From the IMG/VR virus record IMGVR_UViG_2693429700_000004: a stretch of DNA of 12,326 nucleotides. The stretch is one strand, 5' to 3'. Origin of the DNA: a virus. Lineage: Duplodnaviria; Heunggongvirae; Uroviricota; Caudoviricetes. The notes under the pieces were generated by a model. That model was not told where the DNA came from. It worked only from the letters and a program-made list of their open reading frames with translations, and did no database searches. The position numbers were made by a program, and so were the translations under genes. Of the stretch, positions 6,016-12,326 are shown in pieces; within the stretch, counting starts at the first letter, position 1, and each line of letters opens with the position of its first letter.

Positions 6016-7437
6016 ATGACCACTATTACCAAAGAGCGACTGCTGACAATCAAGCAGTGGCGCGAAACATACGGACCTGGTAGCAACGTTGTACTGCCAG
6101 CAGAAGAAGCGGAAGAACTGGCACGGATTGCACTGGCATCATTGGAAGCAGATCCAGTTAAACGAGTTAACTCAGATCAGATGCACCGAGTCTGCTTAGA
6201 AGCTAATCGCTATTTAGATAAATATGACGCGATGGCGAAAGAGGTAAATAAGTTGCTTGGACGCATCGCCCCGCCAGCGCCAGTATTTAACGGCGAATAC
6301 GGTGACGCATATCAGGGCGCTCGTGAAGACCTGTCCATCTGGAAACGGCGAGCGCTTGAAGCTGATGAGCACGTTCGGCGACTGGAGCAAATCAATGACC
6401 ACATGGTGAAAGAGGCGCAGGGAGAATCACGCATGGGCGAGCCTGTAATACGTGAGCCAGCACCGGTAGTGCCTGAAGAAGCAACTCCGGAAAACGTAGA
6501 AATGCTCTCTGGCTATGTTTCAACGTACAAATTAACCGATAGCGAGCGCGATATTGCTGCCGAAATATGGAACGCCTGCCGCGCCGCCATGCTTCAGTCA
6601 GGAAACTTTCGGGAAAACAAGAATTCGTCAACCAATAATTTTCGGGAAATCGAGGAAACGTCAACCAACTATCCGGCAATTCCTAGTGAGGTGTTGTCCG
6701 CAATCCTGAAGGTTGCCAGGATTCGTGCCGATTTCGATGATTTTGACGGTGACAGGCGAGGTATCGGTGATTGTCTGGATGAGGCTGAGCAAGAGCTTAT
6801 CGTTACCATTAACAAATATGCCAGTCAGTTGGCAGCAGAACCGATAGCGACTAATGACGTTCGAGAGCAGCAGACAGCCGTTCCGCCAGTTCCGGAAATA
6901 CAGGCTGATGTCGCGCAAGCAATTGAAAATCTCAAGCAGAAGCTAGTGGAATGTAATCGCTATAACTACTGCGCAGATGCAGTTAAAGGCGTAGAGGATG
7001 CCTGCCGTGCTGTTAGCTATAGCCAAGCCGACAATCAACCAGCATCTGGCAACCAGGCTGCCGAATCCAATCGCGGTAATGAGTGGACCGGCAATCCTGA
7101 TATTGATAACGCCATCATCATGCTCGACCGCATAGATACGCTGGAAAATTGCGATGATGACCGTATTGAGGCTGTTAAGGCTGTTTTGCGTAGACTGGCT
7201 GGCAACTATCCGGTAACTCCGGATGGTTGGATAAGCTGTAGTGAGCGAATGCCGAATACCAAAACAGCCGTTCTTGTTGCCGTGGAGTTTGACAGGAAAG
7301 GTGACTGGCGAATGAAATGGGCTACTTACATCCCGGGGCATCCTGACGCTAATGATGGGTGGATAATTCCTGGTGCGTCGTGGAAACCGTCACACTGGAT
7401 GCCGCTACCAGAACCGCCGCAGGAGGTGCGCCAATGA
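6016..7437 (+). CDS. 473-aa phage protein with C-terminal DUF551-type domain (Ead/Ea22-like region)
   Basis: C-terminus GWISCSERMPNTKTAVLVAVEF...WKPSHWMPLPEPP looks like the DUF551 signature as I recall it. AAGGTGA RBS. Internal imperfect tandem DNA repeat at 6604-6670 encodes NFRENKNSSTN / NFREIEETSTN. Confidence 0.65.
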   Translation: MTTITKERLLTIKQWRETYGPGSNVVLPAEEAEELARIALASLEADPVKRVNSDQMHRVCLEANRYLDKYDAMAKEVNKLLGRIAPPAPVFNGEYGDAYQGAREDLSIWKRRALEADEHVRRLEQINDHMVKEAQGESRMGEPVIREPAPVVPEEATPENVEMLSGYVSTYKLTDSERDIAAEIWNACRAAMLQSGNFRENKNSSTNNFREIEETSTNYPAIPSEVLSAILKVARIRADFDDFDGDRRGIGDCLDEAEQELIVTINKYASQLAAEPIATNDVREQQTAVPPVPEIQADVAQAIENLKQKLVECNRYNYCADAVKGVEDACRAVSYSQADNQPASGNQAAESNRGNEWTGNPDIDNAIIMLDRIDTLENCDDDRIEAVKAVLRRLAGNYPVTPDGWISCSERMPNTKTAVLVAVEFDRKGDWRMKWATYIPGHPDANDGWIIPGASWKPSHWMPLPEPPQEVRQ

Positions 7438-7656: not shown

Positions 7657-7789
7657 ATTCATTACGATATGGGAATTCCCATATCGGGTAAAAACGGTTT
7701 GCGGTAAAGCGAGAGTTAAGTAGAATTGCTGCGGGTGCTTGAGGCTATCTGCCTCGGGCATGCCACCGTAAGGCAGACAGAGAAAAGCC

Positions 7790-7890
7790 CCAGTTAACAT
7801 TACGCGTCCGGCAAGACGCTTAACATTAATCTGAGGCCATATCTATGCTCTACACACGTAGGTTAGCCTCTTACGGACCGAAAGGTCAAG
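7790..7890 (-). ncRNA. sok: predicted Sok-like antisense RNA region (coordinates approximate)
   Basis: Inferred from hok/mok architecture. Minus-strand TTGACC (complement of 7885-7890) is a possible -35; the mok leader contains hairpins and a direct repeat TTAACATTA. Boundaries are not resolved from sequence. Confidence 0.3.
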
Positions 7891-8051
7891 GAGAAGCAGG
7901 CTATGAAGCAGCAAAAGGCGATGTTAATCGCCCTGATCGTCATCTGTTTAACCGTCATAGTGACGGCACTGGTAACGAGGAAAGACCTCTGCGAGGTACG
8001 AATCCGAACCGGTCAGACGGAGGTCGCTGTCTTCGTAGACTACGAATCTGA
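7845..8051 (+). CDS. mok: Mok-like overlapping reading frame (modulation of killing) of the hok locus
   Basis: 68-aa ORF starting upstream of hok and overlapping it in another frame, the canonical hok/mok arrangement. Confidence 0.55.
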   Translation: MLYTRRLASYGPKGQGEAGYEAAKGDVNRPDRHLFNRHSDGTGNEERPLRGTNPNRSDGGRCLRRLRI

Positions 8052-8058
8052 GAAGTAA
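7903..8058 (+). CDS. hok: Hok/Gef-family type I toxin (HokD/RelF-like), 51 aa
   Basis: Translation MKQQKAMLIALIVICLTVIVTALVTRKDLCEVRIRTGQTEVAVFVDYESEK matches the Hok family as I recall it, nearly identical to HokD/RelF except the C-terminal tail. AAGGAGAAG RBS. Not in the ORF track. Confidence 0.85.
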   Translation: MKQQKAMLIALIVICLTVIVTALVTRKDLCEVRIRTGQTEVAVFVDYESEK

Positions 8059-9217: not shown

Positions 9218-9507
9218 TGGTGGATTTACGTAAAGCGGCGCGGGGGCAGATGTGCACCGTCAGAATTCCTGGCTACTGCAATCACGATCCGGAAACGTCT
9301 GTGCTGGCGCATTACCGACTGGCGGGAACGTGCGGAACAGCGATAAAGCCACACGATATGCAGGCAGCGATTGCCTGTAGCTCGTGCCACGATTTAATCG
9401 ACGGGCGGGTAAAAACCGGCGATTACACCAAAGAAGAATTACGCCTGATGCATGCAGAAGGTGTTTTTCGCACACAAGAAATCTGGAGAAAGGAGGGATA
9501 TTTATGA
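9217..9507 (+). CDS. ybcO: DUF1364 / YbcO-like Cys/His-rich putative nuclease
   Basis: 96-aa ORF with spaced Cys/His residues (C13, C21, H23, C54, C57, H58); start overlaps the upstream stop (TAATG). Size and position match ybcO. Confidence 0.6.
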   Translation: MVDLRKAARGQMCTVRIPGYCNHDPETSVLAHYRLAGTCGTAIKPHDMQAAIACSSCHDLIDGRVKTGDYTKEELRLMHAEGVFRTQEIWRKEGYL

Positions 9508-10058
9508 TTTACCCAACGAATACAGGAAAAAGCGGAGAACACCTTCGTCTCACCACGCTGGAAAGTGTCTGGATTCAGGGAAAACTACGTATGTGGGGGC
9601 GCTGGTCGTATATTGGCGGCGGTAAGACGGGAAATATGTTTAACCAGTTGCTGACCTCTAAAAAGCTAACAAAAACGGCAATTAATGAGGCGCTCCGGAG
9701 GATGAAAAAAGCAGGTCTGGACAAACCTGAACTTGAGGCTTTTTTGCGGGATATGATCAACGGCAAGCAAAAAAGCTGGCTGGTGCATTGTACTGATGCA
9801 GAGGCGTTATGCATTGATCGGGTGATTAGTGAAGTGCTGGCAGAACACCCAGGATTGATTTGTATCCTCCGGCAAAGATATGAAGGGCGGGGGATGAGTA
9901 AGCGCAAAATGGCTGAATTGCTAAATGATGCACACCCTGAGTGGTGTTTTCGGACGTGCTGCAGTCGGGTAGATGTATGGCTAAATCTTGCTGAATATAT
10001 GCTCTATCTGCCGATGCGTGATGCATTCTCTTCCGGGTATTTAAAAACTGTCTGTTGA
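9504..10058 (+). CDS. late-gene antitermination protein Q-like
   Basis: ATG 9504 with AGGAGGG RBS (track start 9384 overlaps the previous gene and is unlikely). Last nin gene; a strong promoter overlaps its stop and a short terminated leader follows, the pR'/tR' arrangement. Contains a Cys cluster (CFRTCCS). Assignment is mainly positional. Confidence 0.55.
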   Translation: MIYPTNTGKSGEHLRLTTLESVWIQGKLRMWGRWSYIGGGKTGNMFNQLLTSKKLTKTAINEALRRMKKAGLDKPELEAFLRDMINGKQKSWLVHCTDAEALCIDRVISEVLAEHPGLICILRQRYEGRGMSKRKMAELLNDAHPEWCFRTCCSRVDVWLNLAEYMLYLPMRDAFSSGYLKTVC

Positions 10059-10084
10059 CTCAATCTGTTATCCGGGGCTATATT
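10055..10084 (+). promoter_or_regulatory. pR'-like late promoter
   Basis: TTGACT (10055-10060), 18-bp spacer, TATATT (10079-10084); overlaps the stop codon of the Q-like gene. Confidence 0.45.
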
Positions 10085-10146
10085 CCTCACGCGCCAGCAA
10101 AATCTGGCGTCGGGATTAGGAACCCCGGATAGAGACCGCGACAGAC

Positions 10147-10170
10147 ACACGCCGCGAGCGTGTTTTTTAT
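10147..10170 (+). terminator. tR'-like intrinsic terminator about 80 nt downstream of the late promoter
   Basis: ACACGC-CGCGA-GCGTGT hairpin followed by TTTTTTATT. Confidence 0.55.
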
Positions 10171-10331
10171 TGTCGTATGCACGCGCACATCTGAATTATG
10201 GTGGGGCGTATGGGGGAGCTGAAAAGCTCGCCGGTTGGTTTCCCGGTAGTTCCTAACCCTGTACGTCTCACCACCCGATGATTAGGAACCTGACGGTGGT
10301 GATGGTTTAGAAACCACCAGAGGGCGTCATT

Positions 10332-10913
10332 ATGACAACTCAAATTTCTGTTGAAACTCTCTCCCCGATCACCCATAACCAGATTCCTGTTATTACCACC
10401 GAACTTTTGGCGCAGTTGTACGGTGCTGGAGTTAAGAACATTCAAAATAACTACGCCAGAAATGCTGAGCGCTTTATTGAAGGAAAGCATTTTTTCAAAG
10501 TGGCTGGCGATGCCCTGAAAAATTTGCGGGTAGCTTTAAACTACTCACAAAATTTGCAACCATCTTTAAGAGGGTTACAAATTTCCCCGAAAGCCCGCTC
10601 CCTCATCCTCTGGACAGAACGCGGAGCAGCCCGTCATGCCAAAATGCTGGAAACCGATCAGGCGTGGGATGTGTTCGAAAAGCTGGAAGACTGCTATTTC
10701 AGACAAAAGGATCCGTCAGCGCCAGTTTCATGCCAGAAAAGTTACGACACGCGAGTTCTCTGTTATCAGAGAGGCGGTGTCACTGTTTCCACAATTCAGT
10801 TACGGGATGATGATATTGTTATTTCCCTTGAGTCATGGCTGGAACTGGCGAGAGCCAATGGTTGGTTTGTTGTTCGCAGAGATAAACTGGTGGAAAGGTT
10901 GATGCAGCTTTAA
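10332..10913 (+). CDS. ORF6N-domain (antirepressor-like) protein
   Basis: 193-aa ORF with AGAGGG RBS; N-terminal segment TELLAQLYGAGVKNIQNNYARNAERFIEGKHFFKV resembles the ORF6N/antirepressor N-domain as I recall it. Confidence 0.55.
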   Translation: MTTQISVETLSPITHNQIPVITTELLAQLYGAGVKNIQNNYARNAERFIEGKHFFKVAGDALKNLRVALNYSQNLQPSLRGLQISPKARSLILWTERGAARHAKMLETDQAWDVFEKLEDCYFRQKDPSAPVSCQKSYDTRVLCYQRGGVTVSTIQLRDDDIVISLESWLELARANGWFVVRRDKLVERLMQL

Positions 10914-11011
10914 AAAAGTTCTTGCATTTTTGCACATAAACTGCTTCAATTCCTGTTTGCTTCGCAAAGCTGTATCGCGAGGCGAAACGCAAGTTTTTTT
11001 CGCACAAGGAA

Positions 11012-11034
11012 GCCACCGGAAGGTGGTTTTTTTG
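11012..11034 (+). terminator. intrinsic terminator
   Basis: CCACC-GGAA-GGTGG hairpin followed by T7; a weaker hairpin plus T-run lies just upstream at about 10985-11003. Confidence 0.55.
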
Positions 11035-11156
11035 TGTCCGTAATATACAGCAGCGCAATAAATTCGCTGGTGGTTATTAATACCGTTCTTTCAGCTTGCT
11101 GGCTTTTTCGACAAGAGTTATTGGTATGTCACGTTAACCGGAAAGGGTAAAAAGAC

Positions 11157-11354
11157 ATGCTGAAACAGCAGGATATGACAGAAACCGCCAGAGTTGTGTT
11201 TGATGAATTAAGCGTTACCGAACCGGCGACAGTCGGGGAGATTGCGCAGAATACTTACCTTTCACGCGAACGCTGCCAGTTAATACTGACCCAGCTGGTT
11301 ATGGCGGGTCTGGCAGACTATCAGTGCGGTTGTTACAGACGCATTCAGTCCTGA
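11157..11354 (+). CDS. small putative winged-helix DNA-binding protein (65 aa)
   Basis: ORF MLKQQDMTETARVVFDELSVTEPATVGEIAQNTYLSRERCQLILTQLVMAGLADY with an HTH-like core; weak RBS. Confidence 0.4.
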   Translation: MLKQQDMTETARVVFDELSVTEPATVGEIAQNTYLSRERCQLILTQLVMAGLADYQCGCYRRIQS

Positions 11355-11489
11355 AGGCTTTTTATTTGTGGTAAATGGGCGGCTGGTGGGGGGGGCGGCA
11401 CCTGTCAGTCCTTTGCTTATGTGTTGATGATAATTTACCTTTTGGGGCTATAATTGAGCTAACCAATTGCTAATGAAAGTAAAATTATA

Positions 11490-12203
11490 ATGGCTGTTGT
11501 CTGTTCAGTTATCATGGTTTGCTCCCCAATTAATATTTTTCTTGAAAAGGATACGTTGTCACTTAAGCCAGGCTCAGTCGTTCTGGCCACCAAATGCATC
11601 AGGGAGCTTTTCCTTATGCATTATGGCAAAGTTAAAATTGTCGATATAAGCGAATCCGTCGTAAGTCAATATCTGGAAAGTCAGCATAAGCTGACGAGGA
11701 CTCGTCTGACTGACATTCCGCTTTACCTGTTGCTGGAACCCAACAATCCTGCGTTGGCTGCGGCTTTAATTACCAGCCAGGGATTTTCCGGAGAGGTCAC
11801 GGATATGTTTCTTATGATGGCCTGCCTGTCTCTGTTTGAAACAGATGAACGGATGTCATTGTTTTTAAGTGGATGTTTATCCAGCATAAGTGCCAAAGTC
11901 AGGGCGATAATTCAGACAGATATATCAGCAAGCTGGACGCTTGGTGCGATTGCTCTACAGTTGCATATGAGTGAGAGTTTGTTAAAGACAAAACTGAAAA
12001 ATGAAGGGGGCATGTTCAGTCGCTTGTTGCTGGAAGAGCGGATGCGTGTTGCTGTAAATATGTTATGTTCCCGGCATGGATATGGACAGGCTGTAGCAGA
12101 AAAATGCGGTTATTCAAGCAGGTCCTACTTTATTTCTGTATTTCACCGCTATTATGGCTTCCCGCCAGACAGATATGTATCCAGGCAAGGGCTTGATTAT
12201 TGA
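11490..12203 (+). CDS. AraC/XylS-family transcriptional regulator (AppY/YdeO/GadX/PatE-like)
   Basis: 237-aa ORF whose C-terminal HTH region (YGQAVAEKCGYSSRSYFISVFHRYYGFPPDRY) has the AraC signature, and whose N-terminus (MAVVCSVIMVCS) recalls AppY. AT-rich gene and flanks suggest a horizontally acquired moron. Confidence 0.8.
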   Translation: MAVVCSVIMVCSPINIFLEKDTLSLKPGSVVLATKCIRELFLMHYGKVKIVDISESVVSQYLESQHKLTRTRLTDIPLYLLLEPNNPALAAALITSQGFSGEVTDMFLMMACLSLFETDERMSLFLSGCLSSISAKVRAIIQTDISASWTLGAIALQLHMSESLLKTKLKNEGGMFSRLLLEERMRVAVNMLCSRHGYGQAVAEKCGYSSRSYFISVFHRYYGFPPDRYVSRQGLDY

Positions 12204-12231
12204 TTTTCATCTGATTATTATTTTTTGGCTC

Positions 12232-12307
12232 GGCCCTTTAGCTCAGTGGTGAGAGCGAGCGACTCATAATCGCCAGGTCGCTGGTTCAAATCCAGCAAGG
12301 GCCACCA
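12232..12307 (+). tRNA. tRNA with CAU anticodon, ileX/ileY-like (tRNA-Ile2, lysidine) and diverged from the host copies; tRNA-Met not formally excluded
   Basis: 76-nt cloverleaf: acceptor stem GGCCCTT/AAGGGCC, D-loop AGCTCAGTGG, anticodon loop CTCATAA, T-arm GGTTCAAATCC, encoded CCA end. Resembles E. coli ileX/ileY as I recall it, with compensatory stem changes. Confidence 0.85.
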
Positions 12308-12326
12308 ACCGCCACTAGCTCATCAG

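Follow-up and report, generated by a model that had tools for sequence, protein, structure and literature searches.

A probable RNA-gated antirepressor cassette between a Q-type antiterminator gene and its late promoter in an Escherichia coli lambdoid prophage

The DNA considered here, referred to as the window, is a stretch of 12,326 nucleotides (nt) from a virus of the Caudoviricetes (IMG/VR record IMGVR_UViG_2693429700_000004), and corresponds to the junction between the early-right and late regions of a lambdoid prophage. We focus on a gene at 10332-10913 whose product carries an ORF6N domain, and consider it fairly probable that positions 10055-10913 constitute an autonomous, RNA-gated antirepressor cassette inserted between the antiterminator gene Q and the late promoter cognate to this Q. 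The gene appears to be the E. coli version, associated with a DUF1133-type Q, of the IsrK/AnrP cassette of Gifsy-1, with a C4 gate of the type known from the immI locus of phages P1 and P7. The elements on which this reading is built are the following.

9504-10058, + strand: Q-like antiterminator gene, DUF1133 family (Pfam DUF1133, E = 1e-106; weaker match to Phage_antitermQ; PHROG 753, 'anti-termination protein Q-like')
10055-10084, + strand: near-consensus sigma-70 promoter of the cassette itself, TTGACT-18-TATATT (promoter scan), predicted counterpart of Gifsy-1 PisrK
10078-10131, + strand: c4-a1b1 match (Rfam, 47.8 bits; gathering score 46.7)
10091-10168, + strand: IsrK-like short RNA (Rfam isrK, 69.4 bits; gathering score 50)
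10194-10278, + strand: C4-type antisense RNA (Rfam C4, 67 bits; gathering score 45)
10198-10281, + strand: upstream open reading frame (ORF) of 27 codons, overlapping C4; positional counterpart of Gifsy-1 orf45 (comparison of leader ORFs)
10282-10289, + strand: b2 target site TTAGGAAC, just 3' of C4 (direct reading)
10310-10316, + strand: a2 target site GAAACCA, complementary to the C4 loop a' over 7 nt and abutting the Shine-Dalgarno sequence
10319-10324, + strand: Shine-Dalgarno sequence AGAGGG of the ORF6N gene (direct reading)
10332-10913, + strand: candidate AnrP-like antirepressor gene, an intact ORF of 193 amino acids (aa), with an ORF6N domain at residues 12-105 and an AnrP-type C-terminal domain at about residues 126-193
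10914-10990, + strand: pR'-like element cognate to Q, homologous to the post-Q sequence of the related prophages L006 and L007 and apparently displaced by the cassette
11002-11037, + strand: tR'-like terminator hairpin (core 11013-11026, U-run 11027-11033)

Position of the cassette

The stop codon of the Q-like gene overlaps the -35 hexamer of the 10055 promoter. At the opposite end, the sequence following the ORF6N stop codon aligns with that following the Q stop codon in related prophages devoid of the cassette: an element of about 90 base pairs (bp) that normally abuts DUF1133-type Q genes stands here 3' of ORF6N. In L006 the order is Q, element, terminator, transfer RNA (tRNA) genes and essD/rrrD/rzpD, and in L007 it is Q, element, terminator and tRNA genes, with the holin gene further on. 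The element is composed of a -35 hexamer TTGCAT (10922-10927), a 17-nt spacer and a -10 hexamer TTCAAT (10945-10950), followed by GCTTCGCAAAGCTGTATCGCGAGGCGAA and a conserved hairpin. Folding of 10950-11040 gave a minimum free energy (MFE) of -37 kcal/mol (z = -4.15), and a terminator scan called the same stem on the opposite strand; the tR'-like terminator probably also ends the long transcript of the cassette. When the 3' end of ORF6N was searched together with the element, 1084 of 5426 complete E. coli genomes gave matches, the whole junction being present in only 129 of them; the remaining genomes match in the element alone, which in the matches listed lies mostly against a DUF1133 gene.

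The promoter, the leader and an ORF6N-type ant gene are also found in the nin region of Shiga toxin (Stx) phages (VT2-Sakai, phiSTEC1589), 1.5-2.4 kb 5' of Q, and the homology of the window to these cassettes starts at the -35 hexamer of the 10055 promoter. Since the same cassette occurs in that region, it is likely to be self-contained. In Klebsiella and Enterobacter phages, the isrJ region overlaps the 3' end of Q, extends about 90 nt beyond it and is followed by tRNA and lysis genes; isrJ is probably the pR' transcript. An Rfam search (E <= 1) found no isrJ homologue after ORF6N, where the element is instead specific to the Q family. As the cassette appears to be inserted between Q and pR', IsrK would not be the pR' transcript.

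An initial annotation of this DNA had put the ORF6N gene in a late position, expressed from the late promoter. This placement is not sustained, given the cassette's own promoter and the pR'-like element located after the gene; ORF6N is predicted to lie neither downstream of the late promoter nor at the head of the late operon. The same annotation had missed the three Rfam-significant RNA elements that lie between Q and ORF6N. Its assignment of the ORF6N domain and its label 'antirepressor-like' are both borne out, the former by profile search and the latter by full-length homology to AnrP, the expression of which induces Gifsy-1 (PMC4825925).

Predicted leader RNAs and their pairing

The 273 bp that separate Q from ORF6N contain three matches above the Rfam gathering score (c4-a1b1, isrK and C4). 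The IsrK-like RNA ends in an intrinsic terminator, recognized both by terminator scan and by folding (stem 10147-10163 followed by a U-run), and contains the target mimic b1 (TTAGGAAC, 10116-10123). The C4 fold is very stable (MFE -42.9 kcal/mol, z = -4.5) and leaves accessible both the a' hairpin loop, TGGTTTC (10236-10242), and the single-stranded b', GTTCCTAA (10249-10256), which is exactly complementary to b1 and to b2 over 8 nt each. The 27-codon upstream ORF stops at 10279-10281, 51 nt short of the ORF6N ATG and with no overlap of the start codon; its counterparts in VT2-Sakai and phiSTEC1589, of 33 and 36 codons, likewise end short of the ATG. Coupling by start/stop overlap appears not to be conserved in these three E. 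coli examples.

A wider sample was obtained by retrieving more than 100 IMG/VR loci with an invariant 28-mer of the IsrK terminator, in which 126 leader instances were analysed. Cognate and non-cognate pairs could not be told apart by the RNAduplex energies of whole-length C4 with its targets, and explicit counts of loop complements were used instead. In 122 of 123 parsed leaders, a 7-8 nt complement of the leader's own b' is present in IsrK and again no more than 75 nt past C4. The b loop sequences fall into seven specificity classes, the window belonging to the TTAGGAAC class (n = 21), and the a' loop and a2 co-vary through several variants. From a comparative standpoint, this three-way covariation argues strongly for functional pairings and for the existence of distinct specificities.

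Several leaders depart from this arrangement. A prophage region of Salmonella enterica strain s1 (L011) contains two isrK + C4 leaders about 3.3 kb apart (6476-6662 and 9774-9954), the second directly 5' of an AnrP-like gene. At four IMG/VR loci (L039, L042, L054 and L100) an additional promoter-like site (TTGACA...) and a small hairpin-terminator lie within the 150-250 nt that follow C4/b2, before the AnrP-type gene, and in at least some of them the ant gene begins differently (MNSTSVENLP...). In Pectobacterium (L012, 9881-9965) and Desulfovibrio (L031, 9839-9921), a match to Rfam sRNA-Xcc1, not C4, precedes an ORF6N-type gene at the same distance. These cases from distant genera suggest a wider pairing of structured RNAs of about 85 nt with ORF6N ant genes.

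Recurrence with three families of Q

Antirepressors (Ants) with an AnrP-type C-terminus are encoded immediately after Q in 53 of 67 instances (29 of 41 once duplicates are removed); for Ants with P22_AR_C or other C-termini the figures are 0/41 and 0/23, respectively. The Q genes adjacent to AnrP-type cassettes belong to three Pfam families, and the AnrP-type gene is followed by DNA that matches the post-Q region of the respective Q in 18/19 cases for PF06576 (the DUF1133 Q family), 15/15 for PF06323 and 19/19 for PF06530. For the PF06530 family, this post-Q region is pR'/StxS, which has been mapped experimentally in the Sakai Stx phages (PMC7547250). The succession of Q, cassette and post-Q region thus appears to repeat across three unrelated Q systems.

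In the literature consulted, no mapped pR' was found for a DUF1133-type Q, and DUF1133 is mentioned in a single source (PMC8136144). The insertion of the cassette between Q and pR' appears not to have been stated in the literature consulted, nor is the cassette so described in the Gifsy-1 paper (PMC4825925). The same seems to apply to the existence of at least seven RNA specificity classes, and to the way in which the type of Ant C-terminus tracks cassette position and repressor type.

The ORF6N protein

The 193-aa protein matches Pfam ORF6N (PF10543) with E = 4.1e-19 and 69.1 bits (cutoff 27.8), residues 12-105 aligning with positions 3-86 of the 86-position profile. Its full-length match to PHROG 2379 ('anti-repressor') has E = 1e-90 (positions 1-187 of 187), and the protein is 54% identical over all 193 aa to the 187-aa AnrP of Gifsy-1 (STM2616; E = 3e-67). 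An identical protein is encoded on at least 1000 contigs. Among E. coli variants the C-terminal 68 aa are near-invariant, while patches of the ORF6N domain vary. Pfam gave no P22_AR_C match in the protein of the window; this domain is found in the VT2-Sakai Ant and in protein classes C4 and C6. That the protein might be a truncated Stx-type Ant was considered and rejected, since its C-terminal 68 aa are near-invariant across variants and homologous to the C-terminus of AnrP.

A search of PDB sequences with the ORF6N protein returned nothing significant. A search of species-representative genomes for related loci gave a single full-length (AnrP-type) relative, in Salmonella; the remaining loci have the N-terminal domain alone in common, besides two 17-residue fragments (E. 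coli and Shigella). A protein 90.7% identical over its full length to the E. coli ORF6N protein is recorded under PP818812.1 ('Actinobacillus phage vB_Apl-pPE4'), an odd host for such closeness. In the protein of another IMG/VR locus (L118), Phage_pRha takes the place of ORF6N as the N-terminal domain joined to the AnrP-type C-terminus, and the gene follows a C4-type leader whose loop sequence is again different; this fusion indicates that the C-terminal domain is a shuffled module.

The repressor as candidate target

754-1173, - strand: prophage repressor and candidate target, 139 aa (Pfam HTH_3 only)

Pfam detects no S24 peptidase domain in this short helix-turn-helix (HTH) repressor. A C-terminal motif is common to it and to the 136-aa repressor of Gifsy-1 (46% identity over 35 aa, pairwise E = 9e-7). 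At loci with at least 9 kb of upstream sequence, homologues of the short repressor accompany AnrP-type cassettes in 10 of 11 cases, whereas none of 4 loci with other Ant types has one; when the requirement is lowered to 7 kb or more, the counts are 12/17 and 0/9. On account of this co-occurrence, of the near-invariance of the C-terminal 68 aa and of the fusion to a Rha domain, we infer that the C-terminal domain is a repressor-recognition module, and that the ORF6N protein would inactivate the non-cleavable repressor of its own prophage. Effects in trans on similar repressors elsewhere are possible.

Comparison with known systems

The Gifsy-1 locus has the same Rfam matches in the same order and with the same spacing: Q (STM2617), a1b1/isrK, C4, AnrP (STM2616), isrJ and tRNA-Arg, with the holin gene further on. 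Both systems display a promoter overlapping the Q stop codon, IsrK with its terminator, a C4/STnc1160 element, an ORF6N protein with the same type of C-terminus and, after the antirepressor gene, a post-Q short-RNA region and tRNA gene(s). They differ in the Q family (PF06576 here, PF06323 in Gifsy-1) and in the post-Q element, isrJ not being matched in the window. In addition, orf45 has 45 codons and an ATGA overlap with the anrP start, in contrast to the 27-codon ORF that ends 51 nt short here, and the RNA specificities are distinct (b is TTAGGAAC here and TTGGCGT there; a' is TGGTTTC here and CGGTGAT there). In Gifsy-1, PisrK transcribes through to anrP and the long RNA is untranslated; short IsrK acting in trans opens the orf45 ribosome binding site, anrP is then translated by coupling, and AnrP expression raises the mRNA of the antQ operon and induces the prophage (Hershko-Shalev et al., 2016; PMC4825925).

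The Ants of Stx phages (VT2-Sakai ant, phi24B Ant) are preceded by a promoter and leader with about 85% DNA identity to those of the window, and their ORF6N domain is 79% identical (residues 1-125). Their C-terminal domain is P22_AR_C rather than AnrP-type, and their cassette resides in the nin region 5' of Q rather than between Q and pR'. For phi24B, Fogg et al. (2011; PMC3064807) proposed that Ant helps the prophage to be induced efficiently.

As in the immI locus (c4-icd-ant) of P1 and P7, the C4-family RNA of the window lies in the same transcript as its target, and sites complementary to it lie on either side, a1/b1 upstream and a2/b2 downstream, the latter next to the ribosome binding site; covariation of loops with targets produces distinct specificities, as between P1 and P7. 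The cassette described here differs from immI in that its host phage is lambdoid and that an intrinsic terminator splits off the a1/b1 part as a separate small RNA (sRNA). Moreover, no icd-like gene is coupled to ant, only the 27-codon upstream ORF without overlap being present, and the Ant is composed of ORF6N and the AnrP-type C-terminal domain.

Proposed mechanism and alternative explanations

The promoter, the order of the RNAs, their complementarities and the homology to AnrP were established by sequence comparison, and the steps of action are modelled on the Gifsy-1 experiments and on what is known of P1 and P7. Most transcripts from the 10055 promoter would end at the IsrK terminator. 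Read-through transcripts would be translationally silent because C4 pairs with b2/a2, until an excess of short IsrK titrates the C4 loops via b1 and the ribosome binding site opens. The ORF6N/AnrP-C protein would then inactivate the short non-cleavable repressor encoded at 754-1173, leading to derepression of the early operon and hence of Q. The outcome would be a route to induction independent of repressor cleavage. The long transcript, probably ending at tR', would measure about 945 nt, versus about 910 nt in Gifsy-1. A search for LexA boxes (CTGT-N8-ACAG, 1 mismatch allowed) gave 4 matches against 3.7 expected, none near the cassette, which therefore bears no sign of SOS control.

Several points weigh against this interpretation. 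The E. coli cassette is read from sequence alone, and the cross-locus counts come from loci that are not phylogenetically independent. Positional homology is the basis for placing pR' at 10922-10950; the proposed -10 hexamer, TTCAAT, departs from the usual A at its second position, and the element was not among the promoters called by the scan. In the leader of the window, no Watson-Crick match of 5 nt or more was found for a1, and the activation mechanism may differ from that of Gifsy-1, since the upstream ORF needed there for translational coupling is truncated here. Even for Gifsy-1 AnrP the evidence consists of the effects of expression from a plasmid, not of binding to a repressor, and the AlphaFold model of the ORF6N protein is unusable (predicted local distance difference test, pLDDT, 44; a shallow alignment of 10 sequences at least 86% identical). 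Finally, the prophage in the identical genome described below is degraded, with IS1203 insertions and disrupted lysis and head genes, so that self-induction could yield no phage.

Alternatively, the post-Q promoter could itself be the Q-dependent pR', with IsrK a short terminated transcript like lambda 6S RNA and ORF6N the first late gene, expressed only after Q acts. A promoter overlapping the Q stop codon and an intrinsic terminator within about 80 nt do conform to pR'/tR' architecture, and IsrK has been described as originating from an antitermination-regulated promoter (Sy et al.; PMC7547250). We nevertheless regard this as very unlikely, because Stx phages have this promoter and leader in their nin region, at a distance from Q and in combination with another Q family, and because the element that abuts DUF1133 Q genes stands here after ORF6N. 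The cassette is, furthermore, sandwiched with three Q families, each with its own cognate post-Q region after ant. Q proteins of lambdoid phages have specific sites at their own late promoters.

The mode of action of the protein may also be disputed. ORF6N is classed with KilA-N DNA-binding domains, close relatives of the protein are named 'KilA-N DNA-binding domain-containing' in one source, and the Gifsy-1 data consist of transcript increases and induction, not of repressor binding; the protein might then be a transcription factor acting directly on the early or Q operon, or on host genes, by activation or derepression. This seems unlikely, as the C-terminus varies in step with the type of repressor (AnrP-C alongside short repressors, P22_AR_C in other prophages), which fits a protein-recognition module, and P22_AR_C derives from a proven repressor-binding protein, as cited in PMC3064807. 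A further explanation, that the cassette acts mainly in trans and relieves other phages, whether co-resident or incoming, of the immunity conferred by a repressor of the same type, rather than switching its own defective prophage, is in our view quite improbable. It would account for an intact cassette in a degraded prophage and for an identical protein on so many contigs, and up to 17 places per E. coli genome match the 2.9-kb region. Trans-acting antirepressor crosstalk is the subject of Lemire (2011; PMC3121763), a precedent that makes cross-induction of other prophages plausible. A repressor of the cognate type is present within the same prophage at most scorable loci, however, and the present analysis identified no cross-target.

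A wider reading, possible but doubtful, can be put forward tentatively. AnrP-type cassettes would be a distinct induction switch, which selection would hold precisely at the junction of Q with pR' in three or more unrelated Q systems. Their C-terminal domain would be a recognition module for short, non-cleavable Gifsy-like repressors, and the RNA specificity classes, at least seven in number, would insulate or couple co-resident prophages. The cassettes would set which prophages fire together in polylysogenic E. coli without repressor cleavage. The post-Q position would create a feed-forward commitment loop, because read-through from the early operon overrides the IsrK terminator.

Locus context and genes downstream

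11157-11354, + strand: intact ORF for a 65-aa winged-helix protein (predicted), the first ORF 3' of pR'/tR' (PHROG 331, unknown function)
11490-12203, + strand: AraC-family regulator, 237 aa (Pfam HTH_AraC and HTH_18; PHROG 1450), with a promoter-like site at 11427-11454
12232-12307, + strand: tRNA with anticodon CAT (ARAGORN; Rfam tRNA), the first of a tRNA cluster before the holin gene

The gene order in the window is the short HTH repressor (754-1173, - strand), cro-like, ydaT-like, replication genes, hok/sok, DUF1367, YbcO/DUF1364, the DUF1133 Q-like gene, ORF6N, the 65-aa ORF, the AraC-family gene and the tRNA. Positions 9400-12326 are 100% identical to E. coli Z1323CEC0019, in which the prophage lies at the Rac site, adjoining ttcA/intR. 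Beyond the window end this genome contains three more tRNAs, then a class II holin gene starting about 0.5 kb away, IS-disrupted lysis genes, terminase and tail genes and three DUF1076-family (NleG-type) genes. The tRNA cluster before the holin gene was annotated by PGAP as Ile, Lys, Thr and Gly (L001, 22833-23142 beyond the window); the CAT tRNA is called Met by ARAGORN and Ile by PGAP, and Ile would fit a lysidine-modified Ile2-type tRNA.

Pfam matches of the 65-aa protein are all below threshold (TrmB 0.0029, MarR_2, HTH_20). Its AlphaFold model, from an 18-sequence alignment, has a pLDDT of 90.9 and the H-b-H-H-b-b topology of a winged helix (H4-16, H26-33, H37-49, E53-56, E59-62), and Foldseek retrieves winged-helix domains of IclR, MarR and OhrR regulators, O-methyltransferases and Z-alpha domains (TMq 0.7-0.8); a winged-helix fold is confidently predicted. 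The family has 295 members at E <= 0.001, and the named sources are all Enterobacteriaceae. With its promoter-like site, and on a prophage that also carries NleG-type genes, the AraC-like regulator recalls the PatE/PsrA/PsrB class, by which acid resistance and type III secretion are rewired in enterohaemorrhagic E. coli (EHEC; reviewed in PMC10877973).

The 65-aa, AraC-like and tRNA genes appear to be separate morons in the real late operon. They occupy, before the holin gene, the slot in which late-operon morons such as tRNAs, stx and PatE/Psr-type AraC regulators are found, and which in the related prophage L007 contains tRNAs, TerB, DUF3927 and an esterase; ORF6N, being 5' of pR'/tR', is outside that class. 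The initial annotation had raised the possibilities that cargo had replaced the late operon or that extra morons preceded lysis genes beyond the window. The former is contradicted by the tRNAs and the class II holin gene that follow in the identical genome, which place lysis genes beyond the window as anticipated; the latter applies to the 65-aa protein, the AraC-like gene and the tRNAs but not to ORF6N. The small HTH protein it had noted is an intact ORF with a well-modelled fold, and of its 'double terminator' one part is a strong terminator hairpin (11002-11037), the other corresponding to the conserved 5' hairpin of the pR'-like element with a T-run.

Other features of the prophage were also recorded. 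In the matching genome, IS1203 copies (L001, 8242-10640 and 23655-25317) break a recE-like nuclease gene and the lysis cassette, and there are no head genes between the terminase and tail genes; this prophage is defective, its regulatory cassette being nonetheless intact. The nin-like region of the prophage also contains a complete type I toxin-antitoxin locus, hok/sok (window 7733-8058; Rfam sok, 105 bits; Hok/Gef ORF at 7903-8058, Pfam E = 4e-23). At 6016-7437 there is an uninterrupted ORF of 473 aa with a DUF551-like C-terminus, a stretch that PGAP calls several DUF551 pseudogene fragments in the closely matching genome.

Significance

Since the central mechanism was already known from work on Salmonella and P1, the advance is incremental. 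That the promoter of an abundant post-Q sRNA in these prophages would not be the late promoter alters the reading of transcripts and of Q-dependence, both in effector-carrying prophages of the EHEC type and in Gifsy-1. The tracking of repressor type and cassette position by the Ant C-terminal type offers a simple predictive rule. With the protein on at least 1000 contigs and the junction in 129 of 5426 complete E. coli genomes, these observations point to a widespread route of prophage induction that would not depend on repressor cleavage.

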